From an uncultured Oscillospiraceae bacterium (GTDB lineage Bacteria; Bacillota; Clostridia; Oscillospirales; Oscillospiraceae), in assembly GCA_964495965.1 (NCBI GenBank), contig CAZBXX010000001.1, forward strand, positions 1 to 57,108: a DNA stretch of 57,108 nt, in the 5' to 3' direction. The stretch's first letter is position 1, and each line of letters opens with the position of its first letter. The translations under genes and the position numbers were made by a program. The notes below the pieces were generated by a model. That model was not told where the DNA came from. It did no database searches and worked only from the letters and a program-made list of their open reading frames with translations. Shown here one piece after another: positions 17,555-44,550 of the stretch.

Positions 17555-17558
17555 TTCC

Positions 17559-21662: not shown

Positions 21663-24600
21663 TTACGGATGCTTTGCCGCCCACCAGCTCAGGTCATGCG
21701 ACCATCCCTGCGCGGCCCAGACTCTTACCGCGTCGTCCCAGCTCATCCGGCCGCCCTGGACCGCGTCTCTCAGCACGTAGCCCAGTTCGTCCTGCTTCAG
21801 GCTTCCGTTGTTGTCCGTGTCCGCTCTCTTCAGCATCTCCGTGTACTGCTGCAGGCTCATCCCCGCCGGTTTCGCCGCGTAGGTCGCCTGCTTCTTGTCG
21901 CCGCCGTACAGCGGCGCCGCCTTCGAAAAGCTGTCGTAGTCCGTGACCGCCGTGTTCGCCTGGCTTCCGGAGCTGCCGCTCTTGCTGCCGGTGCCGCTCT
22001 TGCTGCCGGAGGAGCTGCCGCTCTTCTTGCCGCCCAGCCACCAGTCATAGTCGTGGCTCTCCGCCCAGCCCTGGGCCTTCCAGATGGCGTCCGCCTGCTG
22101 CTTTGTCAGGCTGCCTGCGTCCACTTCCGCCTTCAGGTACTCGCCCATTTCATCCTGGGTCACGCTGTTGTTCCCGCTCGCATCCGCATCGCCCAGCATC
22201 GCCTGGTATTTGTTCTTCGTGATGCCCAGCGGTTCCAGCAGTTCTTTCCACGCGGCTTCCTTCTCCGGCTTCAGGGCGTTGCCGTCGTAGGTCCGGATCT
22301 TCCACTCATCCTTCCGCCCGTTCATCACGGTGTTCCAGATGGCGGTCACGTCCCTGGTCAGGTTCGATACCGCAAGGCCCGACAGCTGGCTCAGCGCCTG
22401 CAGCGTCTTGTACACCTTGCCCCACTGCGTCATCTTGCCGTAATAGGTCACCTTTGTGGCCTTGTCCAGTTTCCCGGTTGACAGCTCAATGGTTTCCTTC
22501 CAGATCTCGCACACATTCAGCAGATTGTTGAACGCCGTTACCGACATATCCCCGCTGCTGTATCCCTGCAGCGTCGAGATAAAGTTCTTGATAAACGGCA
22601 GCTTCCCGAGGATGGTCATGTCCTGCGCCATGTTTCCGCGCATCCACTTCCCGTCTTCTCCCCACAGCGCCTGCCTGAACTTCTCCCAGAATTCCTCGTC
22701 GTCATCGTCCCGCATCGCGTCCGCGATGGATTCCACAACCGCCGAGAAGGCCGCGCTGCACACGTACACCGTGAACGCTTTCCCTATCTTTCCGGAGTTT
22801 CGCACCCAGGCTCCGGCCTTGCCATTCTTCCTGGCGTCCAGCGAGTATTCGCTCACCGCATCCAGCAGGATGTTGTAGCTCAGCGTCGGCTCCGCCATGA
22901 ACGCGCTCGCCATCTTTGTGAACGTGGTCTTCCCTCTCATGATTTCCGACCGCGTCAGCGTGCTGTCCATCACCTGGCTGGAATACACCACCTCACGGAA
23001 CAGGTCCGCGGTTTTCTCCATCAGTTCCTCGTGGCTCAGTTTTCCGTCCCGCGCCCGCACCTGCCGCTTGCAGGCCGTCCACAGCATCGACCAGGTCAGC
23101 TGGTCTCCCTTCTCCGCCAGCGTCATCGAGGCTTCCGCCAGCTTGTCCTTCACGGTATCCGCGTGGGCGATCTGCCCCCGCATCCCCTTGGAGATGTCCG
23201 TGTCGTAGTAGCCCAGCGCTTTCCACACCGCCGTCCCGGAGTATTTCATCGCTTCCCGGTAGGCCGCGACGCTCGGCAGCACCCCGATCAGGTTCTGCGG
23301 CTTCAGCACCGTCATCGCCCGCAGGTAGCTTGTCGGCTGCAGCATCGCCACGCGCAGGTTCGCGCCAACGGCCGCGATCTTGTAGTTGCTCATCAGCTTG
23401 CCCGGCAGGTTCATGCCCCGGTCGCCGGATTCCGTCACGCCGTTGATGTCCTTCATCAGCGTCCGGAAGTATGACAGCGCCTTGCTGCCGAACGCCTGTT
23501 CCATCGCACTCTGGATGGTCTTGGTGTCGTAGGTCCCGTCTTCCAGGTCCACCCGTTCCTTGTAGTTGAACCATTTGATCGCGTCCAGGATCGGCAGGCC
23601 CATACCGTTGAGCTTGGCCATGTCGCCCATGTGCTCAGAGAAGGTGTCAAAGATGTCCCCAACAATCAGGGCGTTGCTCGCCTTCGGGTTCAGCGCCTTG
23701 CTGCTCGACAGGTTCAGCAGCCGGAACATGCTGTTCGTCTGCGCGTCGGTGTCGGCCATCGGCCGGTCGTTCGCGTCGGTCCGGATCGGATAGTAGCTCT
23801 CCCCTTCGGTATAGAAGTTGTACCCGAACCGCCGCATGGAGATTTCGTTCCCAAGTTTCGCACCTTCCGCCGCCATGTACAGCTGCAGCGCCTTTGCGAC
23901 CTCGGCCTGCCGCGCCGTCAGGCTGCCCACAATTTCCCGGATCTCCATCGCCGTCAGGTGGTAGTGCGTCGTGTCGTGCACTTCCCCGGTCTTCAGCTTG
24001 ATGTCTCCGATGCGGATGCCGCCCTTCTGGATATGCTGCAGGGCCTGCTGCCGCCCGACCAGTCCGTTCAGCTCCATAATCTGCGCCGTGGTCATCGTGA
24101 TCCTGCTGCCGTCCGCCAGCGTAAACGTGTGCTGCTCCTTCTTCCATCTGTTCACTTCCCTGTCCGTGTACAGGTTTTCCGTAAAGTTGATAATCTTCTG
24201 GGCGTTGAAGGCCATTTTCTCCCAGCCCTTCGTCAGTCCTTCAAAGATCGCCTTCCCGCCTTCCCCGTACCGCTTCATCACGTAATACGGCGTGCCGTTC
24301 TCCCAGGCGGCAAACCGGCTCAGCGCGGTCCCGGCCGTGGCCCTGGCCCGGCCCAGCCTGTTCATGTGCTCCCAGTCTCCGGCGGCCGCTTCCCGCACGC
24401 TCTCGAATCTTGCGTTCGCCATGAAGCTGTTCATGTTCCGGATCGCCGCATACAGGTTCGACAGGAAATTGCTCAGTTGCTTCAGCTCCGCCGCCGTCAT
24501 GCTGTTGATGGTGTAGGTCCGTCCGTCCGCCATCGCCCGGGTAATCATCCCGGCCGTGTTCCGCAGAAAGTCCAGGCTGTCCTGCGAGATGTCCACATAG

Positions 24601-27600
24601 CCGCCCAGATCTGTCTCCACGCTGCCGTCGCCGTCAATGTACCGCTGCTGGTTCTGCAGCAGCTGCTGCAGCTGCTGCAGCCTTGCGGCAAATGCCTGGT
24701 CGTTTCTCGTCTCCGCGCCGCCCCGCAGCGCCCTCTTGCTGGTAAAGTCCAGCTCGCTCAGAAACTCCGCCAGCGGCGCCTTCAGCACTTCGGGCACGTG
24801 CGTCTTGTTGTCGTTCTTCATCAGCATGGTGTAGAGCCTGTTGGCTTTCTCCGTCACCTGCGCCCGGTATTTCGTCACGCCTGCGGATTCTTCCCTGCGC
24901 TCCTTCGCCCGCTTCTGCACGTCCTGGTAGTGCTCTTTCAGCGCCCGGTTCTTCTTCGCGCTCCGGGCCTTTTCCTTTGCCACGCGCTCGGCGGCCCTTG
25001 CCCGGCCTTCCGCCTGCACCTGCGCCACGCGCTCGCTGGCCCGCTCCTGCAGCGCCTGGTATTTCTCTTCGGCCTTCGCCAGTTTCTCGTTGAGCTTCGC
25101 AATCTGCGTGTAGAGCTTTCCGGCTTCCTTCTCCGTGAGCTTCTTCTCTTTCGTCAGCTCCCTGATCTTCTGCCCCAGCTCCTTGTTGCGCGCCTGCATC
25201 CTCTCGTTCCTGGTCATCGGGTCCAGCCTCAGCGCCTCGCGGTCCGGCAGCAGCACCTCGTCCATCATCACGTCGTGCGCCAGGCGGATCGCCGCGCTCT
25301 CCACTGCCTCGCCCATGTAGGCTTCAAACGGGTTCACGGTCTCCTGCTTCCGGCTCGCCTGCAGCAGCTGCGACATAATTTCCAGCTGCTCCCCTTCGTT
25401 GTTCACCTGCGGGAAATAGTTCTCGCCGTAGTCGTTCTGCAGCTCGCTGTAGAATGCGTCGATGTTCGTGTATTCAGCCGGGTTCTGCCGGTAGGCTTTG
25501 CTCTCGCTTCCCGTCACCGATACCTTGAAGCCCAGGTGCGCCCGGTTGAATTCCTGGATGCTCTCATAGCCGCCCGCGTCGTGAATGTGCTCCGGGTTGT
25601 CCAGCACGAATTTTGTCGGGTTCTCCCTGCTTCCGGCAATCCGTCCCGCAATGCTCAGGATGGTCTCGTCCGCCGTAACGGTTTCGTCCGTCACCTGCGC
25701 GTTTTCCACCACGTCCGCCGCGATCTCCCTTGCCATTTCCAGGATGACGGTCGGCTGCACGTCCGCCGCCTGCACCAGGTAGTCGCCCATCGCCTTGATC
25801 TTTGCGGCGACCTCGTCCACGTTTGACGTCCCGCTGTATTCGCTGATAAACGCCTTCGCCATCTTCCTGGCGTCGCTCGTCCGCACTTCCGGCGTCTTCC
25901 CGATGTTCAGCCGCTTCTGGATCTCGCCGATGCTCAGCTTCGCGCCCCTTGTCAGCTCCCGGGTCCCGGCGAACAGCTCGCCCAGGATCTCCGCCTGGCT
26001 GCGGTACATCGTGTACGCGATCTCGCGCCCGCTCTCTTCCGGCGCCGTGTCGTCATAGCTGTCGTCGGCATGCTGGAACAGCGGCTGTCCCACTTCCAGC
26101 ACGTCCTTCCGCATGGCGTCCGTGATCCGCACGCCCCACACTTCGTCGTATCCGTCAATCCTGCCGCCCGGGTTGACGCCCAGCGTCTCGACCCTGCCGC
26201 CCCACTGCTTCGTGTACTTGCCCATGAACTTCGGCAGCTTCTGGTCGTATTCAATCCGGTAGCCTTCCGCATAGCTGCTGGACCAGCGCTCTTCCTGCTG
26301 TTTGGCCGTCGTCCACCCGACCACGTCATAGCCGTCTTCCGCCGCCATCCTCATCAGGTGCTTCATCACATACTCGTGGTACGTGTCCGCGCTCCCGGCA
26401 AAGGGCACATCCGGCGGCGCTGAACTGTTTTTTACCGACAGGCTGAGCGCCTTCGTTTTTGCCTTTCGCATTTCGGCCCTTGCCTCTGTTGCCTTTTTCT
26501 TGAGCTCGATCTCGTCCGCGGTCATCATGGCCATTATCTGAGTTTCGGCAATCGCTCCCTCACGGAGAACTTCCGGATCATTATCGAAAAAGTTCGGGTT
26601 GTATATCGGGCTCTCTTCCAGCCCGATCAGCCAGTCGCTGATAGAGTCCGCTGACACGCCCGGCATCTTCTTGCCGCTGGCCTTCACTCTGGCGTACAGT
26701 TCCTCAGCAAGCCTGTCTGCCTCGTCTCCCATGCGTCTGTTGAGTGTTTCCGCCTCGCGCAAGGCGCGTTCAGCCTCTTTGTACTGCCGCTCGGTATCTT
26801 CCGTCCGGTATCCGGTCTGCGCGCCCTCGTTGTGCAGGTCGCTCTGGATCTCTTCCACAAACAGCATCCTGCCCGCGTGCTCGCCGAATTCCGTTTCAAA
26901 GGCTTCAAAGTCCTGCACCCGGGCGTGGGCGATAATGCCGTACCCGCTGCGTTCTGTGTGGCCCCAGTGCGTTGCCATCGCGTTGTTGGTGTAGTCCAGT
27001 TCCGGCATCCGGAACAGGATCTCGCGGTAGTTCTCCCCGCTTTCAAGCCTGTAGTCTCCCCATCTCGCGCCGTTCGGGAACATATTGTCTTCAAGGTCGT
27101 ACGGGTCCACGTCCATGCGCTCGCTGTAGCCAACGATCACGCTGCCCACTTTGGCCACATAGTACGGACCTTCCGTCTCTGCGAGAATGTCTTCACCTTC
27201 CGGAAGCTCTTCCGTTTCCTCAAACGTGACGCTGTCACCGTGTGCTTCCCTCATCGCCTGCTCAAATTCTTCCCTCGTGTTGTACTCTTCGTTGGCAATC
27301 GGGTCGCGCTGGTATCCTTCCCGGAGCAGCTTTTCTTTCTCCCTGTCGTCCAGTATCTGCGTCTCAATGTTCAGGTCGTTCCCCTGCAGGAACTCCTGCA
27401 CTTCGGCTTTCGTGACACTCTTCCTGCCTTCCAGCCACGGCTGCAGCCCGGCCCAGCGGATTTCCTCGGCCTTCACGCCCTTGCCCCGCAGCCACGGGAT
27501 CACGGCGTTTCCGGCCATCTTGTCCGGCATCGGCCTGCCCTTCGGGTTCGTCCACTCGTCCACGGTGTTCCGCAGCTTGCTGTAGAACACCGGCGCCCAG

Positions 27601-30600
27601 CCGTTGTGCGCGTCGTCCGCCTGCTGGCAGAACACTTCCCTCTGGTTCCGGTAGCTGTTCAGCCGGTTCAGGAACTCCTGCGCTTCGGCCCGGTCTTCCG
27701 GCAGCAGCCGGTCGCCGTCCAGCAGCTTGTGCAGGTGGTCCTTCTCCTTTTGCACGTTGTTCGCCGCGGCGTCCATCCGGGCATAGAACATGCTCGCCGG
27801 TTCATCGGTTTTCCTCGCCCCGGTAAACAGGTCCCCCGGCACGTATCCCGGATAGTACAGGCTCGGGTGCCGTCTCCGGTACCATTTGTCAAAGTCCGCA
27901 TTGCGGGCCTCGGTCCTGCCTTTGGAACCCGGGATGTTGACTGTGCGGTACGCCCCGTTCTCGATGGTTCCCCTGCCCTTCCCGGGCGACTCTGCGGAAT
28001 ATGCCTCGCTGACGTACCGGCTCCGCAGCCGGTTGCCCGCGCTGCCCAGCAGCGCTTCCATCAGCTCAAAGGTTCTTGTCCTCTTCCTGCCGACCTGCTG
28101 CTGCTCGGAAAACCGCGACAGGATGTCCAGCACGTCTTCCGCTCCGTAAATGGTCCCGGCGCCGTATTCGTTCCCGGTCCGGTATGCCTTCGCGCTCAGC
28201 ATCTCCGCCAGTCTCTCGCCCAGCTCTTCCCGGGTGACGCCTTCCGGCGCAATCTCTTCGTTCAGCAGCCCGGCCAGCACGCCAAAGTCTGCGTCGTTCA
28301 GCCCGCTCACAAACTCCCGGACCCGGGCCTGCGCCTGCTCCGCCGTCCGGATTCTCCCGCGGAACTCTTTGCTCCAGCCCGCTCTGGTATCAGCCCGGCT
28401 GTAGTCCCCGCCGGTCCACTCGTCCATGCTCACCTGGTCGTCATTCACCTGCTGGAACTGCGCGCCTTCCACGGAGTTTATAACGCGCCTGCGGTCTTCA
28501 ATGTCCCCGGCCTTATAGGTCAGCACGTTCAGGCCGAGGTCGCGCATCTGCTTCAGCAGATCCGCGTGCTCGGTCTCGGCGCTGTCTTCCACAATGTAGG
28601 CCAGCGGCTCGTCCAGCGTGGCCACCCGCCGCATCTTTGCTTCGAAATACGGGACGTTGATGTTCCGGGTGTCTTCTGCCAGCTGCCACAGCTCGTCCGT
28701 CAGCGCCGGGTCGTAGTTGATCCACTGCGCCTCTTTCCGGAGCTTCCGGTCCATCTGCTGTTTGGTCTTGCTGTCCCGGACCGCTTCCAGAAGGATCTCT
28801 CTTGTGGAGTCCGTTGTCTCCCAGCGCTCATCCTTCGCGGCCGCCCGGACCAGCTCGTGCAGCCGGTCGTTCAGCGCTTCCTTCTGTCCGTAGAAAACAT
28901 CGTCGTCCACGTGCCCGTCGTAGAGTCTTCCGACGTCCGCCCGGGCCTCTTCCACGCTTCCGAAATCCTTCATACCGGCGCCAATCAGGTTCACGCCAAA
29001 GGCTGAAATGCCCTTCTCGTTCTCCTGATCCATAATCGCGACCGTGTTTTCCAGCGTTGCCGGTACGTGCAGCTGCTGGAAGCTCCGCCGGTTCCCGCTC
29101 GGCGTGAACGGATCTTTGTTGTTCCGCAGCCCGCTGTCGACGATAACCCCGTTGAACAACTCTTCCAGCCACGCCCGGTACTTCGGGTCCTCTTCAATCT
29201 CCGTGTTCTTCCGCAGCACGCTTTCCAGCTCTCCGCTGTCCGGAATCTGGACTTCTTTCCGCCCGTCGTCCCGCCAGGTGCGGAACGCATCCTGAATCGC
29301 TCCGACGTGCACATTCCCGGTTTTATAAAGCGGCGCTTTTTCCAGATACCTGAGCTTGTCTTCCTGGTCCTTCAGCGCGCGCTTGAACTTGCCTGTTTTC
29401 TCTACCGTCTTCCGCAGCCTGTCGGTCTCTTCCCGCGCTTCCTCAACTGCCTGCCGGTTCAGCACGTCTGCGACCTTCTGCCGGAATCCTTCGTTATCGT
29501 AAGTCGCGTTCTCGATTTCTTCCTCGCTGATTGCGTCGAAAATCGCCAGCAGCTTCTTGTTGCTGTATCTCCCGAAACCGTCCAGGGTTTTTACCTTCGT
29601 CGGCAGCTCCGGCTCCTGGCCGATACTCCGCATATAGGCATATTTCAGGGCATCCGTTGACTTCAGCGCCTCAAAGACGTCGCCCTCTTTCTGCCCCAGG
29701 CTTTGCTCAACCAGCTGGGTGTCCAGCCTTGTGTCAACGCGCAGCGCATAATAAGCGTTTCCCAGCTCTTTCCTGAGCCGGTCTTTGATGCTGTTCAGCT
29801 TCCTGTAATCCGCCTCGTACTCCACCCGCGGCTCCGTGGGCGTCCATGCGTCCCCGCCGTAAATCCGGTTTCTCCGGTTCACCTTCGGGTCAATGCTCCT
29901 GCGCGGGAAGATAATGGATACCGGCCCGAAATGGTTGTGCACGTCTCCGGCTTTCTTGATGGCCACGCTCGGGTACGGCACGCCGCCCCGCATAATCATC
30001 CGCCGCAGCCCGCTGTAGGTTTTGTTATGTACGGCAATCAGCCGGTCGGTCTCCTCGACCTCGCCCGCCATCATAAACTGCGTCTTCGGCGCCTGCTCGG
30101 TGTACTCAATCTTCACCCCGGCCTCTTCCAGCGCCCGCAGCAGCGCAGGCGGCACCACATTGCTGGGCACGGCAATGTCGGTCCCGTCCAGCAGCTCCTT
30201 ATAGTGCTGCGCCACTTCCGCTTCCGGCACCTTCCGCACCGGCTTCAGCCACCGGCTGAGATACACGTCCCGCTTCAGGCCCTTGGCTTTGGCGATCTGT
30301 GACGCAACCTTCCCCGCCTTCCACGGCAGCCTGCCGACGGCGTCCTTCGCATACTGCGCCCGGTATCCGCTGGTCAGCTCGCTCTCCGGGATGATGCACT
30401 CATAGGTCACCAGGTTCGGCCGGTTGTACGCCTCGCTGAATTGATCGTTCAGCATCAGGTTCGAGGAATGCTGGTACGGGTTATAGGCCACTCGCGTCGG
30501 CTTGCCGTTATCCTTGAAGATGTCCAGGTGCCCGTATTTCTCCCCGGGCTTGACCGTGACCTTGCTCGGGTCCCCGACGCTCTCTTCCCAGCGGCCCACT

Positions 30601-33600
30601 TCCATCGCCTTGACCATTTTCTTCTTGCCGCCTTCGCCGCGCTTCATGGACGCCATCGGCGGGTAGAGCTTGCCGTCAATTTCCAGGAACGATTTATACG
30701 TTTTCACGATCTTCCCGGCCCGCTCCTGCTCGTCCAGGAACTTCAGCGTCTCTTCGTCTTCCACGAATCTGGACCACTGCGTTCCGCTTGCGATCCCGGC
30801 AGCTTCTTCCGCCGCCACCGGATCTTCCATATTGACTTCCCGGGCAGCATCTGCTATACTGGCATTAGAAGCGGTGGGTACCCCAGTGAGCTCCCCTTGA
30901 TTGGGTCGAGTACGGGGTGACGCCGCTTTGATTTTGTCGTTCAGCGTCAGCTGCAGGCTGTATACAAACTCTCCGTCGGCCTTCCTGCGCACGTTTGCGA
31001 GAAGGTCGAATACTCTTCCGTCGATCTGTACGGTCTTTACAAAATAATCCCAGCGATTCACGCCTCTGTGCGCTCTGGTGTTTTTGCCGGTCTCCGGGCT
31101 GCTATTCCGGTAAGTCGCGTTTTCCACCAGGTCAAAGATAGCGCCGTCTGCTCCGGTGTTGATTTTTGCGTCAATCCCGGCTTGGTCGGAATGCCTGTCG
31201 CCGTAGATGTTCTTTCTCAGATCGTCAGCCGCAAACTTTGCATAGTATGCGTGCCCGTTCCGAATAAACTTGGCAGTCCGCCCGCGGTATTCATTCGTCA
31301 TCAGGTCCATAAACATCTGCTTCCGCTGCTTCCACGGCAGCTTCCGCACTTCTTCAGACGTCTCATAAACCTCGATGCCGTCCTCCCGGGTCCCGATCTT
31401 CATAAACTGCGTCCCGGCCTGCATCGCCGCGCCCACGGTCTTCGCCGCCTGGTAGTTCTCCGCCGCGCCCAGGATGCCCCGGTCCCAGATCTCCTGCAGC
31501 GTGTTCAGCTCGCCCTTCATGGCCTTCACGGCCGCAAAGAGGCTGTGGTCCTCTTCGGTGTTCACCTCGTCAAAGGCAGCGCGGATCCGCCCGCCGATTT
31601 CCCGCAGGGAATCCGCGATCTTCTCCGCCGCCGTCATCTTTTCCCTGGCCAGCTGCCGGACCGCCTTGCTGTCAAACAGCATGGTCTGGCAGGCGTTGGC
31701 CACCACTTCGTCCAGCGCCTTTTCATAGCTCAGGTTCGGCGCGATGTTCATCTGGTGCTGCACCAGCCGCCGCAGCGTCTCCGGGTTCGTCTTCAGGATC
31801 GTCGTCACGACAAAATCCTTCAGCTCCCGGTACACTTCCGGGTTATACTTCTGCAGGTAGTGCGTCAGCTCGTGGCTCATCGTGGCGCCCACGATAAACC
31901 GCTGCATCCCGTTGACCGTAATATGCCCGGTCATGTTGATATACAGCGTGTCTCCCTGCCAGGCGCCCAGGGCGTTCCCGTATGTCTCCCCGCCGTCAAA
32001 AAACACCACGTCCAGGTCCAGCGCGTCGGCGACAACCTCGCCCAGCGCCGCGGCCTTTTTCTGGTTCACGTTCAGGCTGTTCGGGTCGATGCCCGCCATT
32101 CTGCGGCCGTCGATCACGCCGCCGCCATAGCTCACCGTGCCCTTCTTGCGCTTTCCGGGATGCTGCTCCCGGATTTTTTTGCGCTCCTGTTCCAGCTGCC
32201 GGATCATCTCTTCCGTGTTTCGGATCTCTTCGTTAATTTTCTCCGCCTGCCCGCTCAGCTCCCGGACGTTCTCGCTCTGCGCCGCCGCCGGGGCTGCGTC
32301 CACGGCCTGCTGCACCGTGTCGGTGATCTCCTTCAGCGCGGCCCTGCGCTCTTCCACGTAGTCGCGCATTTCCTTGATGCTCCGGTTCAGCTCCGTCAGC
32401 TCCGGCGCGGCCGCGTCGTTGATCTCCGCCGCCATCTTCTGCAGGTTCCGGAAGGCCGACGCCGCCTGCTGTTCTTTCCCCAGCAGGTCCTGCCGCACCT
32501 GGCTCCCGATTTCGGCAGCCACGGTGATCTGCGCCGGGGTCAGGTAATCGAGCCTGCCCGCCGTCACGTTCCCTTCCTTCGCCTCGCGGTACAGGCTCTG
32601 CAGATCCGCTCCCGCCGCCGCGTACAGGTTCACCGCCTGCTCCATCGCCGTGGCAAAGGTCGCCACGTCCTGCGTCTTCTCATAGGCCGCCGCCGCCTTC
32701 TCCGCCAGCTCCTTGCTCGCGATCCCCGTCAGGCTCGCCCGCACCATCAGCCGCCCGCTGTCGGTGTCGGTATCCACCGTTTTCGCGGGTCCGATCTGCG
32801 CGTTCCGGCCAAGCGCCCAGGCGATCTTCGCCTGCGGCTCCGTCACGCCGTCCTTCAGGGCCGCGCTCTCGCTGTAGGCTTTGAAGCTCATGCCCCTCTG
32901 CCCGAATTCGTAGGCTTCCTTCATCCCGTAGGCGTAGGGGACAAAGTTCTGGCTCTCTTCCCGCGCCGCAGTGATCTGCTCCACTTCCGCGTCGCTCAGC
33001 TCAAAGGCGCCGAGCGCCCGCTCGTCGCTGAAGATGCTGCGGGTCAGTTCCGGCCCCTGAATCAGATTCTTTGCCAGCTGTGCGCTCGCCCGCTCGGTTC
33101 CTTTTACGGTCCCGCTCATCAGGTTCGTTTCCGCCTGCCGTGCGTTCTGCACGCCTTCGGTCGTTGCGGTCACGTTGGTGAGATACACTGCCACCTGCAT
33201 CAGCGCAAAGCCTTCGTCTTCCGAAAGCTCCACGCCGGTGAGTTCCTGAAACTGTTTTTTCAGCTTGTTGTTGGTTGAAATCCGCTGCGCCGCTTTATAG
33301 GTTGCGACGTCCACGCCGAGGTTTTTTGCCTGCTGCACAATGCTCGGCTGCCCGACAATCGCGCCAACCGGGTTTGCATAAGTGCTCGCGCCGCCCAGCG
33401 CACCGGCAAGGCCGCCCAGCAGTCCGTCATACAGCAGCTGCCCGTCGCCCCAGACGTCGGCGGCAAAGTCTCCGACCTTCTGCATGAAGGTCCGGTCCTC
33501 TCCACGCCCGGTTACTTCTCCGATTTTGAAGATCCGGTCCATAATCGGGTTCAGAATATCCGCCAGCATTTCCTCTGTGGCCTCGCTGCCGAACGTGGAT

Positions 33601-35003
33601 GCCAGCGTACCGATCAGCTCGCTTCCGGTCTTCTCAGCTACCCATTTGTCCAGCTTGCCAAAGAAAGCATCGCCGTAACCGGTACCGCGCCACGAACCAC
33701 CGACACCGCCCAGCAGTTCTGTTCCCACTTCGACGGCAGCCCGCGCTCCACCGGTAACAACTTGTTTCCGCAGGCTCTCTCCGCGGTTTTCCGCTTCCTG
33801 CGCGGATGATCCGAATACCCGGAGCCCCATCATAATCAGGCTGGCCTCTCCGAAAGCGCGGTCAAACAGCTGCTCTACCGAGGTCTTCTCAAGGTCCAGC
33901 ACCAGCCGTCCGAGCCAGTTGGATGATTCCCTCATGGCACTGAACGCCGTACCGGTCAGTCCGCTCCCTGCGTTCTGCAGGTAGTTGGCCACCTGATAAA
34001 TGGACGCTGCCTTCCCGATCCCGCTGCTGAGCTGCCCGCCGCTGACGGCATCCGCAATCGTCAGTCCGCTGTTTGCCAGCGACAGTCCGTAGTCTGCCGC
34101 CGTGATCCCGGCATTTGACAGCATCTTCTGCCCGAAGCTCTTGTTCTCATAATTCTGCAGGTACGCGTCCGTCGTCTGCTGCGTCATGCTCCCGTCAACG
34201 GCATAGGTTGGTATGCCATAGGTGCTCGCGATCAGCTGTGCGGCCTGATTGCTTTCCTGCGTGCGCTCGTGCCAGTTATCAACCTCTTCATCCCCGGTCA
34301 TCTGCAGCGGGGTGCTGAATCGTTCCTTGGCATACTGAAAATTCTGTTTTGTGTCCGTGACGGTTTTTCTCAGCACATCACCGGTGCTCGCGCTTTTGTC
34401 CAGACCGTGCACTTCGGCCAGAGAAACGCCCTTGGCTTTCTTGTATATGGGGCGTCCTGCCAGCCATGACCAGAACGGTGCCTCTTCCAGCTCGTAGTCC
34501 AGCCCGTAGGCTTCCTTTGCTTCCTGCGCGCTCTGCGGGTTCCTGCGCTTCTCCCGCGCAAGTTTTTCCGCCTCGGTCATCTTGGCGTCTTCAACCTCGG
34601 TGCGCTTCGTTACATAGTTCTTCGCATCCCGGGCCATGTTCAGCAGCGTCTGCCACGCGCTGACTTTTCCATTCTCGTCAAACGCAAACACGGAGCCCTT
34701 GGCTTTTTCCGCCTGATTCTGAGCCTGCTTCAGCTGCGCCGCCGTCATCTGGGGCCCTATCTGGTATGCCGCGTTTCCGACTGTCCTCTGCAGCGCCATT
34801 CTCTGCCGTGCGGCTTCCTGCGCGGCCTTCCATGCCTCGCTCTGAAACTGCTCCGTATAATCGTAAAACTGTCCGCCTGCAAGCCGGTTCAGATAGTCCT
34901 CTCTGCTCGCGCCGCCCTGGCTCTGCCCGTAATTCTGCTGTGAAGAGCCGTTTGCAGCCGTCTGCTGTGCTACCGATCTCAGAAGGTCTTCTGCTGTAAC
35001 CAT
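21663..35003 (-). CDS. giant 4,446-aa multi-module virion-associated protein (candidate ejected/polyvalent protein)
   Basis: Single uninterrupted 13,341-nt frame with an AAGGAGA RBS 8 nt upstream of the ATG. It contains HELTH (aa 1044-1048), EEIQSD (aa 2717-2722), long coiled coils, a Gly-zipper segment and two C-terminal EF-hand-like repeats. It sits between internal-protein-like genes and the tail fibre. Confidence 0.8.
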   Translation of the reverse strand: MVTAEDLLRSVAQQTAANGSSQQNYGQSQGGASREDYLNRLAGGQFYDYTEQFQSEAWKAAQEAARQRMALQRTVGNAAYQIGPQMTAAQLKQAQNQAEKAKGSVFAFDENGKVSAWQTLLNMARDAKNYVTKRTEVEDAKMTEAEKLAREKRRNPQSAQEAKEAYGLDYELEEAPFWSWLAGRPIYKKAKGVSLAEVHGLDKSASTGDVLRKTVTDTKQNFQYAKERFSTPLQMTGDEEVDNWHERTQESNQAAQLIASTYGIPTYAVDGSMTQQTTDAYLQNYENKSFGQKMLSNAGITAADYGLSLANSGLTIADAVSGGQLSSGIGKAASIYQVANYLQNAGSGLTGTAFSAMRESSNWLGRLVLDLEKTSVEQLFDRAFGEASLIMMGLRVFGSSAQEAENRGESLRKQVVTGGARAAVEVGTELLGGVGGSWRGTGYGDAFFGKLDKWVAEKTGSELIGTLASTFGSEATEEMLADILNPIMDRIFKIGEVTGRGEDRTFMQKVGDFAADVWGDGQLLYDGLLGGLAGALGGASTYANPVGAIVGQPSIVQQAKNLGVDVATYKAAQRISTNNKLKKQFQELTGVELSEDEGFALMQVAVYLTNVTATTEGVQNARQAETNLMSGTVKGTERASAQLAKNLIQGPELTRSIFSDERALGAFELSDAEVEQITAAREESQNFVPYAYGMKEAYEFGQRGMSFKAYSESAALKDGVTEPQAKIAWALGRNAQIGPAKTVDTDTDSGRLMVRASLTGIASKELAEKAAAAYEKTQDVATFATAMEQAVNLYAAAGADLQSLYREAKEGNVTAGRLDYLTPAQITVAAEIGSQVRQDLLGKEQQAASAFRNLQKMAAEINDAAAPELTELNRSIKEMRDYVEERRAALKEITDTVQQAVDAAPAAAQSENVRELSGQAEKINEEIRNTEEMIRQLEQERKKIREQHPGKRKKGTVSYGGGVIDGRRMAGIDPNSLNVNQKKAAALGEVVADALDLDVVFFDGGETYGNALGAWQGDTLYINMTGHITVNGMQRFIVGATMSHELTHYLQKYNPEVYRELKDFVVTTILKTNPETLRRLVQHQMNIAPNLSYEKALDEVVANACQTMLFDSKAVRQLAREKMTAAEKIADSLREIGGRIRAAFDEVNTEEDHSLFAAVKAMKGELNTLQEIWDRGILGAAENYQAAKTVGAAMQAGTQFMKIGTREDGIEVYETSEEVRKLPWKQRKQMFMDLMTNEYRGRTAKFIRNGHAYYAKFAADDLRKNIYGDRHSDQAGIDAKINTGADGAIFDLVENATYRNSSPETGKNTRAHRGVNRWDYFVKTVQIDGRVFDLLANVRRKADGEFVYSLQLTLNDKIKAASPRTRPNQGELTGVPTASNASIADAAREVNMEDPVAAEEAAGIASGTQWSRFVEDEETLKFLDEQERAGKIVKTYKSFLEIDGKLYPPMASMKRGEGGKKKMVKAMEVGRWEESVGDPSKVTVKPGEKYGHLDIFKDNGKPTRVAYNPYQHSSNLMLNDQFSEAYNRPNLVTYECIIPESELTSGYRAQYAKDAVGRLPWKAGKVASQIAKAKGLKRDVYLSRWLKPVRKVPEAEVAQHYKELLDGTDIAVPSNVVPPALLRALEEAGVKIEYTEQAPKTQFMMAGEVEETDRLIAVHNKTYSGLRRMIMRGGVPYPSVAIKKAGDVHNHFGPVSIIFPRRSIDPKVNRRNRIYGGDAWTPTEPRVEYEADYRKLNSIKDRLRKELGNAYYALRVDTRLDTQLVEQSLGQKEGDVFEALKSTDALKYAYMRSIGQEPELPTKVKTLDGFGRYSNKKLLAIFDAISEEEIENATYDNEGFRQKVADVLNRQAVEEAREETDRLRKTVEKTGKFKRALKDQEDKLRYLEKAPLYKTGNVHVGAIQDAFRTWRDDGRKEVQIPDSGELESVLRKNTEIEEDPKYRAWLEELFNGVIVDSGLRNNKDPFTPSGNRRSFQQLHVPATLENTVAIMDQENEKGISAFGVNLIGAGMKDFGSVEEARADVGRLYDGHVDDDVFYGQKEALNDRLHELVRAAAKDERWETTDSTREILLEAVRDSKTKQQMDRKLRKEAQWINYDPALTDELWQLAEDTRNINVPYFEAKMRRVATLDEPLAYIVEDSAETEHADLLKQMRDLGLNVLTYKAGDIEDRRRVINSVEGAQFQQVNDDQVSMDEWTGGDYSRADTRAGWSKEFRGRIRTAEQAQARVREFVSGLNDADFGVLAGLLNEEIAPEGVTREELGERLAEMLSAKAYRTGNEYGAGTIYGAEDVLDILSRFSEQQQVGRKRTRTFELMEALLGSAGNRLRSRYVSEAYSAESPGKGRGTIENGAYRTVNIPGSKGRTEARNADFDKWYRRRHPSLYYPGYVPGDLFTGARKTDEPASMFYARMDAAANNVQKEKDHLHKLLDGDRLLPEDRAEAQEFLNRLNSYRNQREVFCQQADDAHNGWAPVFYSKLRNTVDEWTNPKGRPMPDKMAGNAVIPWLRGKGVKAEEIRWAGLQPWLEGRKSVTKAEVQEFLQGNDLNIETQILDDREKEKLLREGYQRDPIANEEYNTREEFEQAMREAHGDSVTFEETEELPEGEDILAETEGPYYVAKVGSVIVGYSERMDVDPYDLEDNMFPNGARWGDYRLESGENYREILFRMPELDYTNNAMATHWGHTERSGYGIIAHARVQDFEAFETEFGEHAGRMLFVEEIQSDLHNEGAQTGYRTEDTERQYKEAERALREAETLNRRMGDEADRLAEELYARVKASGKKMPGVSADSISDWLIGLEESPIYNPNFFDNDPEVLREGAIAETQIMAMMTADEIELKKKATEARAEMRKAKTKALSLSVKNSSAPPDVPFAGSADTYHEYVMKHLMRMAAEDGYDVVGWTTAKQQEERWSSSYAEGYRIEYDQKLPKFMGKYTKQWGGRVETLGVNPGGRIDGYDEVWGVRITDAMRKDVLEVGQPLFQHADDSYDDTAPEESGREIAYTMYRSQAEILGELFAGTRELTRGAKLSIGEIQKRLNIGKTPEVRTSDARKMAKAFISEYSGTSNVDEVAAKIKAMGDYLVQAADVQPTVILEMAREIAADVVENAQVTDETVTADETILSIAGRIAGSRENPTKFVLDNPEHIHDAGGYESIQEFNRAHLGFKVSVTGSESKAYRQNPAEYTNIDAFYSELQNDYGENYFPQVNNEGEQLEIMSQLLQASRKQETVNPFEAYMGEAVESAAIRLAHDVMMDEVLLPDREALRLDPMTRNERMQARNKELGQKIRELTKEKKLTEKEAGKLYTQIAKLNEKLAKAEEKYQALQERASERVAQVQAEGRARAAERVAKEKARSAKKNRALKEHYQDVQKRAKERREESAGVTKYRAQVTEKANRLYTMLMKNDNKTHVPEVLKAPLAEFLSELDFTSKRALRGGAETRNDQAFAARLQQLQQLLQNQQRYIDGDGSVETDLGGYVDISQDSLDFLRNTAGMITRAMADGRTYTINSMTAAELKQLSNFLSNLYAAIRNMNSFMANARFESVREAAAGDWEHMNRLGRARATAGTALSRFAAWENGTPYYVMKRYGEGGKAIFEGLTKGWEKMAFNAQKIINFTENLYTDREVNRWKKEQHTFTLADGSRITMTTAQIMELNGLVGRQQALQHIQKGGIRIGDIKLKTGEVHDTTHYHLTAMEIREIVGSLTARQAEVAKALQLYMAAEGAKLGNEISMRRFGYNFYTEGESYYPIRTDANDRPMADTDAQTNSMFRLLNLSSSKALNPKASNALIVGDIFDTFSEHMGDMAKLNGMGLPILDAIKWFNYKERVDLEDGTYDTKTIQSAMEQAFGSKALSYFRTLMKDINGVTESGDRGMNLPGKLMSNYKIAAVGANLRVAMLQPTSYLRAMTVLKPQNLIGVLPSVAAYREAMKYSGTAVWKALGYYDTDISKGMRGQIAHADTVKDKLAEASMTLAEKGDQLTWSMLWTACKRQVRARDGKLSHEELMEKTADLFREVVYSSQVMDSTLTRSEIMRGKTTFTKMASAFMAEPTLSYNILLDAVSEYSLDARKNGKAGAWVRNSGKIGKAFTVYVCSAAFSAVVESIADAMRDDDDEEFWEKFRQALWGEDGKWMRGNMAQDMTILGKLPFIKNFISTLQGYSSGDMSVTAFNNLLNVCEIWKETIELSTGKLDKATKVTYYGKMTQWGKVYKTLQALSQLSGLAVSNLTRDVTAIWNTVMNGRKDEWKIRTYDGNALKPEKEAAWKELLEPLGITKNKYQAMLGDADASGNNSVTQDEMGEYLKAEVDAGSLTKQQADAIWKAQGWAESHDYDWWLGGKKSGSSSGSKSGTGSKSGSSGSQANTAVTDYDSFSKAAPLYGGDKKQATYAAKPAGMSLQQYTEMLKRADTDNNGSLKQDELGYVLRDAVQGGRMSWDDAVRVWAAQGWSHDLSWWAAKHP

Positions 35004-35024
35004 GTTCGGTTTCTCCTTGTCCTG

Positions 35025-36233
35025 TTATTTGAAGAGGCTCTTAATCTTGTCCAGAAGCGACGTGGCGTTCGATGTCACAGTCGTCGTTTTGGTCGTGGCG
35101 GTGTTGTTCCTGGCCGCGTTCTCCTTCGCCCGCTGCTGCGCCGCGGCCATCTCCGCCGCCGTCTTGGCCGTCGAGCTGTAGGCCCACGCGTTGTTCTCCG
35201 CGTTCTGATCTTCGTAATAGTGGTTCGTGTTCTTGTCGTAGTTTACCGGCGCCGGGTTTACGGAAATCAGGCTGCGCTTCTCTGTTGACGTCAGGTTCGG
35301 ATTCTGCAGGATCGCCGTGTTTGTGGACCACGCGTCCGCGCCGTTGTTCACTGCGTACGCCAGGTCCTCCGCCGCCTGGTACAGGGCGCTGTTCGGGTTC
35401 GACGTCACCCAGGTCCCGCTGCCGCCGCCACCGCCGCCGGAGCCGTAGTTCCCGCCGCCGCCGGACCTGCCGTTTCCACTGGAAGTCACCGTCGGCGTGA
35501 TGCTCCGGTTGTACTCGGCCCGCAGTGCCGACGCCGCCGCCCTGGTCATCCCCGCGGCCGCCAGCTCGTCATCGTCCGGCGTGTAGCCCGACTGCAGGAT
35601 CAGCGCCCGCAGGTTCGCATACGCCTGCTGCTGCCGCTCCCAGGCCGTGTTCTCCTCGGCAATTCTCTGGTTGTAGGCATCAAGCTCCCGCTCATAGGCC
35701 GTCTTGTCTTCGGCGATTCTCCGGTTATAGGCTTCCGCCTCCCGCGCCGCCGCCAGCTGCTGCCCGTACTCCCAGTCGCCCATCCGGTCCCGGTACTCCC
35801 CGTACTCGTTGTCGCGCCGCTGCCCCACCAGGCCGTACAGGTCCTTCAGGTTGTCGCCCTCGTCCTGGTACCTGCCGTAGGCCATCCCGTACAGCTGCGG
35901 GATCACCGCGCTCAGGTTCTGCAGGTAGGCGTCATAGGTCTGCTGCCCCACCTGCTGCCCGTAGGTGCTGCCGTAGCCGCCGGTCAGCGCCGCCGCCTGT
36001 CCCATCGTGTCCTTCATCGCCAGCTTCCCGTTCTGGATGTACTGGTCCTTGTAACTCTGGTACAGCGGGTCCTCGTTCACGTCGTAGCTGAACTTCTCCC
36101 GGTTCTGGATCCGGTCGAACAGGTCGTTCAGCTGCCCCTCATAAGTCCCGGCGTAAACCGGCTTCTCCGCCGTCGCCGCCGCCAGCGCGGTGTTGTATAC
36201 CGCATTGTTGAGCTGTTCTTCTCTTGTTGCCAT
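35025..36233 (-). CDS. low-complexity virion protein (possible internal/ejection protein)
   Basis: 402-aa ORF rich in Gln/Tyr/Gly/Ala. It has the tandem 'AYNRRIAEDKTAYER / AYNQRIAEENTAWER' and the poly-Gly tract 'GGGGNYGSGGGGGGSG'. Confidence 0.5.
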   Translation of the reverse strand: MATREEQLNNAVYNTALAAATAEKPVYAGTYEGQLNDLFDRIQNREKFSYDVNEDPLYQSYKDQYIQNGKLAMKDTMGQAAALTGGYGSTYGQQVGQQTYDAYLQNLSAVIPQLYGMAYGRYQDEGDNLKDLYGLVGQRRDNEYGEYRDRMGDWEYGQQLAAAREAEAYNRRIAEDKTAYERELDAYNQRIAEENTAWERQQQAYANLRALILQSGYTPDDDELAAAGMTRAAASALRAEYNRSITPTVTSSGNGRSGGGGNYGSGGGGGGSGTWVTSNPNSALYQAAEDLAYAVNNGADAWSTNTAILQNPNLTSTEKRSLISVNPAPVNYDKNTNHYYEDQNAENNAWAYSSTAKTAAEMAAAQQRAKENAARNNTATTKTTTVTSNATSLLDKIKSLFK

Positions 36234-36251: not shown

Positions 36252-38414
36252 TCAGGTGCTTGGCGTATAGTATTTCCATCCGCGCCAGTTATAGGTTGTG
36301 TTCCCCGTATCTTTCCACTTGCTGTTGATCCAGATCCTTCCCGCCGTCGGCCAGAACTCAAACATGACCACCATCACGTAATACTTTGACATGACGACCG
36401 TTCTCATCGCGTTGAACTCGTTGCACGTGCTCAGCTGCGACGGCATGTTCGTCCAGGCCGGGTACCGGGCATCACCCGCCCCGCCGTGCCAGACGTCAAA
36501 GGTCTGGTTCTTTTCGGACCAGGGGTTTTCCTCGTCAATCGTCAGCACGTCCCGGTTCAGGATCGCGCTGGTCGACCCCTCGCTCGCATCCGCGTGCAGG
36601 CCGAAGTCCAGCAGGTTCACCCCGCCCAGGAACACGCCGCCCGGGGTCGGCAGGTCCACGGTCCCCGGCATCGGGGTCTCCGTTACCGTTTTGCGGTTGT
36701 GCACGGTCCGCTTCTCCGGCGCCACGCCGATGCCCACCGCCGTGCAGTTCCCGTCCCGCATGGCCACCACGTCCTTGTGCTGCGCCGCCAGGATAATCTG
36801 CCGCACCACCGCGCTGCTGACTTTGTCCTCTGCCGTCACCTGCACCGTAACCGGGTCGTCCGCCGTCGGGTTTATCATTCCGAAGGTGGCGCTCTGCACC
36901 CCGTTGGTCAGGGTATGGCTCTGCCGGTCCGCCAGCACCATGAACGTCAGCGTCAGGTCGTTCCCGGTGAGCCCGGTGTCATAGGTCGCGTCCGCCTTCA
37001 CCCGCAGGTACAGGCCGCCGTCAAGCTGGTTGCCGTTGCTGTCGCAGCGGTAGGTCAGGCTCCTGTCAATCACCAGGCCCGGCGCCGTGTAGGTTTTCAC
37101 GCCGGTCAGGTAGTTATAGACCCTGTAGTTCATTCCCCGGACGTCCGTTACCGCCACCATGACCGGCATGTTGTTCGCCGTCACCGCCGCCGGGGCCGTC
37201 CCCTCATACTTCCCGGTGCCGGGGTTCAGCGTCAGGTTGAATTCCTCTGTGCCGTAGCCGCATTTCACGGTCGAGATCCCGGCGCTGCTGCCCGGCGTCA
37301 CCGTCGCCGAAACATTAAACTTCGAAATCCCCGCGATGTACGTGTTCGGGAAGTACGTCGCCGCCTTCCCCTGCTGCGCGATGGTTATCACAAAGTCCGC
37401 GCTCGGGCACATGTTGTTCCCCGCCGCCAGGGTGAAGCTCGCCGTCGCGGCGGTGTAATAGTACATGCTCGCCTGGATCGTGATCGAGCTGAGCACCGTA
37501 ATGCCGGAGTCTTCAAACATCTGCTTCAGCGCCGCCGCATTAAACGTCGTGGACCCGCTGCTCGCCGTCGCCGTAAACGTGCTCGTCCACAGCTGGGTCG
37601 ACCCGTATTTCAGGTACAGCGTCACGCTCTCCCCCACCAGCAGGGACGACCAGTTCAGCGTAATGCTGCTGTCGCTCGTCACGCTGTTTGCCGAAAAGCT
37701 CAGCTGCGGGTAGCTGGTGCTCACGGTCCCGGAGTACCCCACCACGTCGTTGGAGACCTTCGTCGCCCGCACCTGGAAGCTGTGTGTCCCGGTCATCCCC
37801 GGGATCGTGATGCTCGCCGACGTCGACGTTCCGGAGTAGAAGGTGGTCCAGCTCCCGCTGTTGTCCTTGCAGTACTGCCACGCGCAGCAGCTGGCGTCCG
37901 CCGTGGCGTTCAGCGTCACGCTGCCGTTGGCGCTCGTGGTTGTAATCAGCGTCAGGTTCGCCGGGCTCCGGTCGATGGTCGGCAGCGTCACCCGAATGCC
38001 GGTCCCCTGGGAGTATTCGCAGTTGTAGCTGCCGCCCCTCGGATGGAACACGTTGAAGTCGCTGTAGTTCCCCACGGGATGCAGGACCACGTTGAAGTAT
38101 GGCGCCGTCCCGCTCCGGAAGTCATCATGGTCCACGGTGAACGTCAGATACGGCGACCATCCGCCCAGCGTCACCCAGCCGCTCCCGTAGGTGCTGAAGA
38201 TGTCCCCGTAGTATTCCAGCGAGTCGTCTGCGTTGCTGAACACGATTTCCCCGTACGCCGTCCAGGTGGCCGTCCGCCCCTCAATGGACTGGAACTGCAC
38301 GTCCGTGATCTCCACAAAACTGGTGTTTTCCGCCGCGTTCTGCGTCACTTCATATTCAATCCGGATGTATCCTTCCCAGTTCCGGTCTTTCGGGAATGTT
38401 GCGTAGTAGGCCAT
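36252..38414 (-). CDS. large Ser/Thr-rich structural protein (tail/adhesin-like)
   Basis: 720-aa ORF in the late operon with a beta-rich, Ig-like-looking repetitive composition. No catalytic motif was recognised. Confidence 0.5.
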   Translation of the reverse strand: MAYYATFPKDRNWEGYIRIEYEVTQNAAENTSFVEITDVQFQSIEGRTATWTAYGEIVFSNADDSLEYYGDIFSTYGSGWVTLGGWSPYLTFTVDHDDFRSGTAPYFNVVLHPVGNYSDFNVFHPRGGSYNCEYSQGTGIRVTLPTIDRSPANLTLITTTSANGSVTLNATADASCCAWQYCKDNSGSWTTFYSGTSTSASITIPGMTGTHSFQVRATKVSNDVVGYSGTVSTSYPQLSFSANSVTSDSSITLNWSSLLVGESVTLYLKYGSTQLWTSTFTATASSGSTTFNAAALKQMFEDSGITVLSSITIQASMYYYTAATASFTLAAGNNMCPSADFVITIAQQGKAATYFPNTYIAGISKFNVSATVTPGSSAGISTVKCGYGTEEFNLTLNPGTGKYEGTAPAAVTANNMPVMVAVTDVRGMNYRVYNYLTGVKTYTAPGLVIDRSLTYRCDSNGNQLDGGLYLRVKADATYDTGLTGNDLTLTFMVLADRQSHTLTNGVQSATFGMINPTADDPVTVQVTAEDKVSSAVVRQIILAAQHKDVVAMRDGNCTAVGIGVAPEKRTVHNRKTVTETPMPGTVDLPTPGGVFLGGVNLLDFGLHADASEGSTSAILNRDVLTIDEENPWSEKNQTFDVWHGGAGDARYPAWTNMPSQLSTCNEFNAMRTVVMSKYYVMVVMFEFWPTAGRIWINSKWKDTGNTTYNWRGWKYYTPST

Positions 38415-38417
38415 TCG

Positions 38418-41014: not shown

Positions 41015-41022
41015 CTCACACC

Positions 41023-43117: not shown

Positions 43118-43164
43118 GGTGATAGTCTCCCTTCATAATCATGTTGTTCTGGGAGACGCCCGTC

Positions 43165-44547: not shown

Positions 44548-44550
44548 GCC

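Follow-up and report, generated by a model that had tools for sequence, protein, structure and literature searches.

Our study concerns a 57,108-nucleotide stretch of DNA from an uncultured Oscillospiraceae bacterium (GenBank assembly GCA_964495965.1, contig CAZBXX010000001.1, positions 1 to 57,108 of the forward strand; hereafter the window), in which a single minus-strand gene of 13.3 kb, called here the giant gene, lies within a prophage. The giant gene is part of the late virion operon of a temperate, podovirus-like phage that infects gut or rumen Clostridia, and its domains mark the product as a phage-type polyvalent protein as defined by Iyer, Burroughs, Anand, de Souza and Aravind (2017). 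The giant protein is most likely carried inside the virion and brought into the host along with the DNA. The positions of its modules and of the neighbouring genes are collected in Table 1.

Polyvalent proteins are the setting in which the PBECR and LPD families were defined, and their hub domain is a zincin, the MPTase, whose motif consists of an HExxH helix followed by a helix with a glutamate zinc ligand (Iyer et al. 2017, J Bacteriol 199:e00245-17, PMC5512222). The same work sets out the rationale for packaging such proteins and for their processing by the MPTase itself (PMC5512222). A preliminary description of the window, made from the DNA letters and their translations, had placed the giant protein in this class, and our analysis sustains the assignment: we identified a PBECR5 domain, an LPD3 domain and an HExxH zincin motif with a downstream glutamate in the giant protein, and ART-PolyVal, LPD23, MuF_C, PBECR3 and methylase modules in shuffled arrangements in its relatives. 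The Pfam scans covered the whole protein and 600-amino-acid (aa) chunks at E-values up to 1, and the module borders were drawn from homologues, searched in three pieces and mapped back onto the giant protein. The strongest match is PBECR5, with 142 bits against a cut-off of 25; since every residue conserved in this family is retained (H1659, K1684, H1689, D1705, N1712, Y1715, D1718, T1721 and Y1729), this predicted RNase is probably active. The LPD3 match (aa 1288-1348) is near the threshold, with 25.8 bits against a cut-off of 27, and the module that contains it is 49-61% identical to proteins above this cut-off. Downstream of PBECR5 lies a linked domain with conserved residues D1922, R1973, H1979, E2121, K2123, R2126, E2132 and R2171, which also matches hypothetical proteins of Bacteroides phage BF1-TP2 and Acinetobacter phage Ab9. 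The several globular modules that had been seen by eye at aa ~1200-2300 correspond to these elements, namely LPD3 (1204-1397), PBECR5 (1641-1865) and the linked domain up to aa ~2190. The zincin motif that had been placed at aa 1044-1048 is the sequence HELTH (nt 31860-31874), and it has proved invariant: HExxH is kept in 74 of 74 homologues, and a glutamate 51 residues downstream (Glu1099, nt 31707-31709) in 72 of the 74.

A further candidate effector is the EEIQSD module. It had been described as a split module at aa ~2640-2965; the module is real and is split by an insert, but it is wider (aa 2470-2977), with a start some 170 residues earlier. Some 35 residues are invariant in an alignment of six sequences, with His, Arg, Glu, Asp and Ser well represented; the invariant motifs are GVKxEExxWxG, YxLxGxxYRE, H, AHxR, LxxEExQSD (nt 26838-26855), DxP, RxAxE and WTxxxxQxxR, and we consider the module probably enzymatic. 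Its AlphaFold2 model, built from the six sequences, is poor (predicted local distance difference test, pLDDT, 57.5), and Foldseek returned no informative match for it. The idea that a Q-x-x-R-Y/W motif in this module marks a RecB-type nuclease was dropped. Separately, aa 2656-2761 (nt 26721-27038) match positions 1785-1886 of PHROG 7348 (E 3.1e-7), a 2,564-position profile annotated as 'endolysin', a label that probably goes back to a different part of the large proteins in that profile. The DUF6782 metallopeptidase and GDSL lipase labels carried by some homologues lie outside the regions aligned to the giant protein and were set aside.

Homologue boundaries delimit at least six conserved modules besides PBECR5 and LPD3, and these modules are exchanged within the family. 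A search with aa 1001-2200 recovered 175 homologues, whose precomputed Pfam content comprises PBECR5, LPD3, ART-PolyVal, LPD23, MuF_C, PBECR3, DdrB-ParB and DUF6782. Among the 11 largest relatives, ART-PolyVal is present in five and PBECR5 in three, and a DNA methylase was also found; the MuF_C carried by some relatives is PBECR-like. Module order and combination vary among the relatives (P0025-P0144 and 49 genome open reading frames, ORFs), and such shuffling is the hallmark of the polyvalent class. The closest relative found, a 4,102-aa ORF in an Oscillospiraceae metagenome-assembled genome (MAG; locus L009), matches aa 2458-4445 at 56% identity and is largely different in its N-terminal half. 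A relative in a Lachnospiraceae MAG (L011, positions 508-13848, equivalent to P0192) is also 4,446 aa long, with ~46% identity in the core and another module set, and the equal length appears to be a coincidence.

The giant gene itself is a single 4,446-aa frame from ATG 35003 to TAA 21663, stop-free on translation, and the base composition gives a probability of ~1e-66 for 4,446 codons without a stop. The guanine plus cytosine (GC) content of its first, second and third codon positions (GC1/2/3) is 0.60/0.41/0.81, a pattern that matches the major capsid protein (MCP) and portal genes, and by this measure the coding signal is even over the full length. The TAA of the upstream gene p402 (35025-35027) lies 22 nt 5' of the start. 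Translation, GC pattern and long relatives all agree with the uninterrupted 13.3-kb minus-strand ORF preceded by AAGGAGA that had been reported for the window, and a missed frameshift is unlikely because relatives have single ORFs of equal length. Three plus-strand 'ORFs' of 724-736 aa lie inside the gene (23631-25826, 26832-29006 and 31068-33278); their GC1 of 0.82-0.86 and GC3 of ~0.6 are the mirror image of the giant-gene pattern, which identifies them as antisense shadows cast by a gene of high GC3 and not as genes in their own right.

It is extremely improbable that the giant gene is the product of an assembly or frameshift artefact, or that its product is the tape-measure protein of a phage with a long tail, the tube or sheath genes having been overlooked. 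Its size and its largely helical protein would suit such an explanation, but the coding signal is uniform along the gene, and dozens of independent assemblies contain single ORFs of 2.4-4.8 thousand aa. Furthermore, tape-measure proteins do not carry arrays of PBECR, LPD and zincin domains, no tape-measure family of Pfam or PHROG matches the giant protein, and the same two databases reveal no tail tube, sheath, tape-measure or chaperone-frameshift gene among its neighbours, of which p180, p283 and p720 carry no annotation. With a portal that is P22/SU10-like, the podovirus-like prophage devoid of a recognisable tail tube of the preliminary description is thus confirmed, within the limit set by these three unannotated genes.

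Special attention was given to the size and distribution of the family. A phmmer search with aa 3300-4250, used as a single-sequence query against 1.84 billion cluster representatives, gave 3,462 matches at E-values up to 0.001 and 2,673 at E-values up to 1e-30; the best 150 of the 3,462 are mostly 2,500-4,800 aa long, the longest having 4,844 aa. In the GTDB species genomes, we identified the C-terminal core (C-core) of the protein at 77 loci, nearly all in Clostridia MAGs from gut or rumen and a few in isolates, with carriers in Oscillospiraceae, Lachnospiraceae, Acutalibacteraceae, Limivicinus and Faecousia; 47 of the 55 complete ORFs at these loci measure 2,400-4,446 aa. In IMG/VR, 331 viral contigs contain a relative; the complete ORFs extend from 1,855 to 4,396 aa (median 3,371 aa), and the largest contigs listed span 38-48 kb. 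A tblastn search of 50,697 deposited phages gave four weak partial matches and one faecal contig, and no cultured phage in that set has the C-core. As judged by these sequence relationships, the giant protein is at the upper end of a very large family and not an outlier. Family members also occur in what appear to be cultured isolates, Alitiscatomonas aceti (L049/L085, NZ_JAOQJF010000004) and Lachnospiraceae bacterium AM48-27BH (L081), with stop-to-stop ORFs of 2,581 and 2,907 aa. The NCBI gene call in A. aceti is only 1,783 aa long, and no gene is assigned to the ~2.4 kb upstream of it, which suggests that the start sites of giant genes are often miscalled.

What the family has in common is a frame of few parts. 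Among 187 relatives of at least 2,000 aa, collected by their match to the C-core, this core is present in ~184 (it being the collection criterion), the zincin module in 148 and a Gly-rich module in ~33, about a fifth, and every other module was found in fewer than 30. The Gly-rich module has invariant residues D370, D381, R395, E474, E477 and E478, and no 19-aa window in it exceeds a Kyte-Doolittle value of 1.3, so it is not a classical membrane segment. The 'Gly-zipper hydrophobic segment' proposed at aa ~290-555 therefore survives as a conserved Gly-rich module at aa ~340-540, but not as a hydrophobic one. The C-terminal region of ~850 aa that had been set apart by eye turns out to be the family-defining core itself (aa ~3300-4240). 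No Pfam model matches it, and its AlphaFold2 model (pLDDT 69.8) is almost all helix; the long charged coiled coil noticed at aa 3260-3400 is modelled there as one long helix. With Foldseek, the C-core model matches 64 predicted structures of BFVD at E-values up to 0.001 (best 3e-39), and among the matches listed, all are C-terminal fragments of large viral proteins. Named matches include a nuclease, a PolyVal ADP-ribosyltransferase, an LPD-containing protein, a MuF-C protein and an N-acetyltransferase. A further match, in Tenacibaculum phage Gundel (template modelling score 0.21), is labelled 'structural protein', and we discarded it, the label not being traceable to proteomic evidence. The basis for a role of the C-core in packaging or ejection is purely contextual, namely its genomic setting.

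The variable tail beyond the core consists of two tandemly duplicated units (41% identity, E 8e-16). The second EF-hand-like loop (aa 4395-4406, nt 21786-21821), DTDNNGSLKQDE, fits the canonical DxDxNGxLxxxE, whereas the first (aa 4272-4285, nt 22149-22190) is degenerate, with a two-residue insertion. The Pfam EF-hand_1 model scores 25.6 bits in a 600-aa chunk, against a cut-off of 25.4, and 15.7 bits in the whole protein. Of the two EF-hand-like repeats described earlier, the duplication is clear and the second loop fits the consensus, while the first loop is degenerate and the Pfam threshold is reached only in the chunk.

The same frame can be read differently, with the giant protein as a mainly structural ejectosome in which the Gly-rich module and the C-core build a trans-envelope conduit for DNA (compare T7 gp15/gp16 and P22 gp7/16/20) and the enzymes are passengers. 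The conserved parts are indeed the non-enzymatic ones, the giant gene precedes the fibre gene as gene 16 does in T7, and C-core-only proteins of ~1,300 aa may exist (P0007 and P0015). Nevertheless, we consider this account unlikely: membrane segments were not found, and P0007 and P0015 stand at contig ends or beside an upstream ORF that matches the giant protein, so they may be truncated gene calls. A conduit role has also been proposed for gp47 of phage phi24B (bioRxiv 10.64898/2026.04.10.717836). It is important to note that a conduit is compatible with a packaged and delivered polyvalent protein and does not exclude it.

The genomic context is what points to packaging and delivery. The giant gene shares its strand and operon with TerL, portal, Prp, scaffold and MCP, and at more than 50 related loci it is found among late virion genes with a portal-terminase system; at L004 and L085 no other virion gene separates it from the lysis genes. 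Our survey of homologues covered Clostridia genomes and viromes (the 77 GTDB loci and 331 IMG/VR contigs). A p402 homologue was found directly upstream of the giant gene at 48 of 56 related loci with recognisable neighbours, and on account of this adjacency we treat the two genes as a cassette. Two positions of the cassette were identified. In the first, as in the window, it comes after MCP-p180-p582 and before fibre or lysis genes; the neighbour annotation upholds the earlier placement of the giant gene between a Gly/Gln-rich 402-aa protein and the fibre gene. In the second, found at 12 loci (for example L015, L034, L038 and L042), it lies between portal-Prp and scaffold-MCP. Genes between portal and scaffold-MCP in tailed phages typically encode procapsid-assembled proteins, such as those of the MuF/gp7 type, and MuF-family genes, like the cassette at these 12 loci, come after the portal gene. 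Because of these loci, we argue for a location inside the head.

The first of the two positions could also speak for an external or tail-associated structural protein, a needle, plug or wall-penetrating device whose enzyme modules act on the cell surface: in the window the giant gene has tail-side neighbours, following p582, p283 and p720 and preceding the fibre, and the tail proteins of Gram-positive phages are often very large and modular. Four observations make such a device improbable. First, Pfam detects no beta-helix, lysin, carbohydrate-binding or other surface-acting domain in the giant protein. Second, PBECR5 and the ART-PolyVal and methylase modules of the relatives have intracellular substrates. 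Third, the 12 loci with the cassette between portal-Prp and scaffold-MCP do not suit a tail component. Fourth, a 496-kDa, mainly helical chain is hard to fit on a short tail. A non-virion enzyme, made late and acting inside the producing cell or secreted to its neighbours (in host takeover, superinfection exclusion or as a polymorphic-toxin-like protein), is quite improbable too. PBECR- and ART-type domains are known in toxin systems as well (PMC5512222), but the gene is embedded in the virion operon with a place relative to the head genes that is conserved in more than 50 loci, no signal peptide, secretion-system gene or immunity gene was found at or near it, and a late RNase would be of little use to a cell about to lyse.

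The partner protein p402 has no Pfam, PHROG or PDB relative, its PDB matches being artefacts of (GGGGS)n linkers, and its N-terminal half is strongly conserved (DTMGQAAALTGGYGSSYxQxVGQQAYxxYLQxLNxxVPELY). A decapeptide, QQT[T/Y]DAYLQN, is common to the giant protein (aa 275-284, 34152-34181(-), QQTTDAYLQN) and p402 (aa 97-106, 35916-35945(-)), with nine of ten residues identical, and the p402 copy sits in the most conserved block of that protein. A hidden Markov model of the p402 family does not match the giant proteins, so the decapeptide is not evidence of a shared domain; it may be due to chance, or it may be a short shared interaction or cleavage motif.

If the giant protein is a packaged polyvalent protein, the course of events might be as follows. 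It would be made late and taken into the procapsid in few copies, the C-core, probably with p402, serving as the module for incorporation, ejection or both, and it would exit by way of the portal and tail channel, either together with the DNA or before it. The zincin would cut the polypeptide into separate effectors, either before packaging, as in P1 DdrB, or after delivery; in the cell just infected, PBECR5 would then cut RNAs of the host or of its defences, with other released modules acting alongside. More speculatively, the EF-hand-like tail could respond to the different Ca2+ level that the protein meets when it leaves the capsid. We lean towards this whole chain of packaging, ejection, zincin processing and effector release, with some reserve.

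Several observations weigh against it. The support for delivery consists of genomic context and the analogue gp47 of phi24B, and hhalign finds no homology between that protein and the C-core (probability 0.5%). Neither the C-core nor the Gly-rich module shows similarity to N4 gp50 with hhalign, and the zincin matches the MPTase of N4 gp50 weakly (E 0.0023, probability 12%) and is not matched by the Pfam MPTase-PolyVal and DUF6782 models. The C-core model has no relative among solved structures (best Foldseek E-value against the PDB, 0.034). With Pfam, the whole protein and its 600-aa chunks show neither a MuF domain (Phage_Mu_F) nor any other domain known from encapsidation or ejection, and two features frequent in ejectosome proteins, clear membrane segments and a peptidoglycan hydrolase module, were not found. 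Finally, ~60% of the giant protein has no assigned function, and sequence searches of the whole protein against the PDB and against NCBIfam gave no match. The preliminary description had already held most of the protein to be unassignable; that proportion stands, but the signature domains PBECR5 and LPD3 are present. It had also reported neither MuF nor polymerase signatures, and Pfam agrees on both counts: no polymerase family was found with Pfam or NCBIfam, the DxDGD motif is absent, and the PDB sequence search yielded no match.

A frame that combines the C-core and Gly-rich module with the p402 partner, as yet unnamed, and the EEIQSD module may be new; all of these components lack both a matching Pfam model and a relative of solved structure. 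We put forward tentatively, and with more doubt than confidence, that the Gly-rich module, the zincin, the ~950-aa C-core and p402 form a previously undescribed delivery chassis or ejectosome of podophages of monoderm gut Clostridia, whose effectors would be swapped by recombination, and that EEIQSD represents a new enzyme family against a host or defence target. Polyvalent proteins are regarded as the earliest-acting phage products after infection, and experimental work on them is almost non-existent. In temperate podophages of gut and rumen Clostridia, one such protein takes up 20-33% of a genome of ~40-45 kb, and it exists in thousands of variants that share a frame and exchange enzyme modules. 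The family is thus a rich, clearly bounded pool of candidate enzymes for counter-defence (RNases, ADP-ribosyltransferases, methylases and modules such as EEIQSD) and a test case for the packaging and expulsion of a polypeptide of ~0.5 MDa from a small capsid. Relatives in cultured isolates, namely Alitiscatomonas aceti, Lachnospiraceae bacterium AM48-27BH and probably C. clostridioforme LM41, make experiments feasible.

Table 1. Giant gene, modules of the giant protein and neighbouring prophage genes, with positions in the window.
Feature	Position (nt)	Strand	Remarks
Giant ORF	21663..35003	-	4,446 aa, 496 kDa, pI 5.5; phage-type polyvalent protein
Ribosome-binding site AAGGAGA	35012..35018	-	8 nt 5' of the giant-gene ATG
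aa 1-335, Q/A-rich N-terminal region	33999..35003	-	Near-absent among collected homologues; the exception, relative L034, aligns with aa 95-644
aa ~340-540, conserved Gly-rich acidic module	33384..33986	-	Homologue alignment
aa ~778-950, coiled-coil-like linker before zincin	32154..32672	-	Weak matches, to Pfam coiled-coil families only
aa ~950-1200, zincin (gluzincin-type, MPTase-like) module	31404..32156	-	HELTH and Glu1099
aa 1204-1397, LPD3-containing module	30813..31394	-	More than 100 homologues at 40-60% identity
aa 1408-1640, module without assigned function	30084..30782	-	L009, 69% identity; L011 and L036, 33-36%
aa 1641-1865, PBECR5, predicted BECR-fold RNase	29409..30083	-	Pfam E 2.6e-41
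aa 1870-2190, domain travelling with PBECR5	28434..29396	-	Homologue alignment
aa 2191-2469, near-absent among collected homologues	27597..28433	-	
aa 2470-2977, EEIQSD module; variable insert aa 2733-2863	26073..27596	-	
aa 3016-3299, helical module, before the core in many relatives	25107..25958	-	
aa 3300-4240, family-defining, mostly helical C-terminal core	22284..25106	-	PHROG 22978 match; starts with a charged helix of ~100 residues
aa 4241-4446, variable tail, two tandem EF-hand-like units	21666..22283	-	
Head module: TerL, P22-like portal, Prp-like protease (44143-44547), scaffold, MCP	42095..48151	-	
Virion genes between MCP and cassette: p720, p283, p582 (PHROG 511), p180	36252..41565	-	
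p402, Gly/Gln-rich 402-aa partner	35025..36233	-	Directly upstream of the giant gene
Collagen-repeat tail fibre, 915 aa	18840..21587	-	Directly downstream of the giant gene

The visible prophage measures at least 40.3 kb, of which the 13.3 kb of the giant gene make up roughly a third, as had been estimated, and it adjoins tRNA-Leu (16715-16802) and the host gene mnmG. Along the minus strand, early genes for Erf and SSB are followed by TerL, a P22/SU10-like portal, a Prp-like protease, scaffold, MCP, p180, p582, p283, p720, p402, the giant gene, the collagen-repeat fibre and an endolysin; p720 is beta-rich and probably a tail or receptor-binding protein. The 134-aa gene between portal and scaffold (44143-44547(-)) encodes a Prp-type cysteine protease (PF04327, E 2.9e-12). 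A motif resembling the Prp cleavage sites of L27 and phage 80alpha is present at the N-terminus of the scaffold (...LFDIQLFA/EGGG; 43165-44091(-)) and again at that of the MCP (MKLFDFIQLFA/VQTT; 42095-43117(-)), and for this reason both proteins are probably trimmed by the phage-encoded Prp. When the same motif was sought in the giant protein and p402 it was absent; only scaffold and MCP have it.

At the other end of the operon, the GC3 of the fibre gene, 0.64, is lower than the 0.81-0.88 of the other virion genes, and the GC content of the 16.5-20 kb stretch is 51%, compared with ~60% elsewhere; these deviations suggest that the fibre and lysis end (16500-21587) was recently exchanged. The tRNA-Leu(CAG) gene (16715-16802(+)), which adjoins the lysis end, is a likely integration site. 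No second copy of an attachment (att) repeat of at least 14 nt from the tRNA-Leu region occurs anywhere in the window, and the second prophage end, with any integrase, must lie beyond position 57108. On the host side, by mnmG, the region 11586-14474(-) encodes two proteins unrelated to the giant gene, one of the DUF2201 metallopeptidase-like/VWA kind and the other, of 587 aa, weakly matching a sigma-54-activator AAA domain.

The giant protein has several points in common with the phage-type polyvalent proteins already described: many unrelated modules in one chain (PBECR5 and LPD3 here; ART-PolyVal, LPD23 and MuF_C in relatives), an HExxH motif with a downstream glutamate, a late virion neighbourhood with portal and terminase, and mosaic relatives. 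It differs from them in being at the large end (4,446 aa), in having no MuF domain and in being paired with a p402-like gene, and its C-core and Gly-rich module, which have no Pfam model, are not named in the accessible part of PMC5512222. Other packaged proteins, namely T7 gp14/15/16, P22 gp7/16/20, the MuF (SPP1 gp7)-toxin fusions and P1 DarB/DdrB, differ in showing no similarity of sequence or fold to the giant protein; with the known T7 and P22 ejection proteins there is no Pfam or PHROG match, and only the position before the fibre gene is similar. All of these are virion-internal proteins that leave with the DNA, and the internal protein of T7, P22 and N4 amounts to 1.5-2.5 MDa, into which one to four copies of a 496-kDa chain would fit. 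In P1, the MPTase of DdrB cleaves its own polypeptide ahead of packaging (PMC5512222).

Three systems come closer. The first is coliphage N4, whose gp50 has an MPTase-type HExxH region needed for encapsidation and long helical regions for injection (PMC5512222). Like the giant protein, this packaged and injected 3,500-aa protein is encoded at the end of the virion operon, in the gene order MCP...gp51-vRNAP (virion RNA polymerase), whereas no RNA polymerase module is detectable in the giant protein. The second is gp47 of phi24B, a 933W-like podophage of the Shiga toxin (Stx) group, a protein of 2,811 aa with LPD1/5/38 and MuF-C that is abundant in virions by proteomics, invisible in cryo-electron microscopy and proposed to be an encapsidated ejection protein (bioRxiv 10.64898/2026.04.10.717836). 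It too is a giant LPD protein of a temperate podovirus, encoded by the last late-region gene after an ORF of ~420 aa, although its host is Gram-negative, its LPD set is another one, and the 421-aa protein upstream of it has no similarity to p402. The third is the pair of prophages phi1 and phi4 of C. clostridioforme LM41, predicted podoviruses that are spontaneously released, each with an 8-kb LPD3-like ORF at the 3' end of the structural region that occupies ~20% of the genome (PMC11318856). Their ORFs are shorter, at ~2,700 aa, and, likened by description, they share with the giant gene a home in prophages of gut Clostridia, a predicted podovirus morphology and an outsized ORF of LPD3-like kind.

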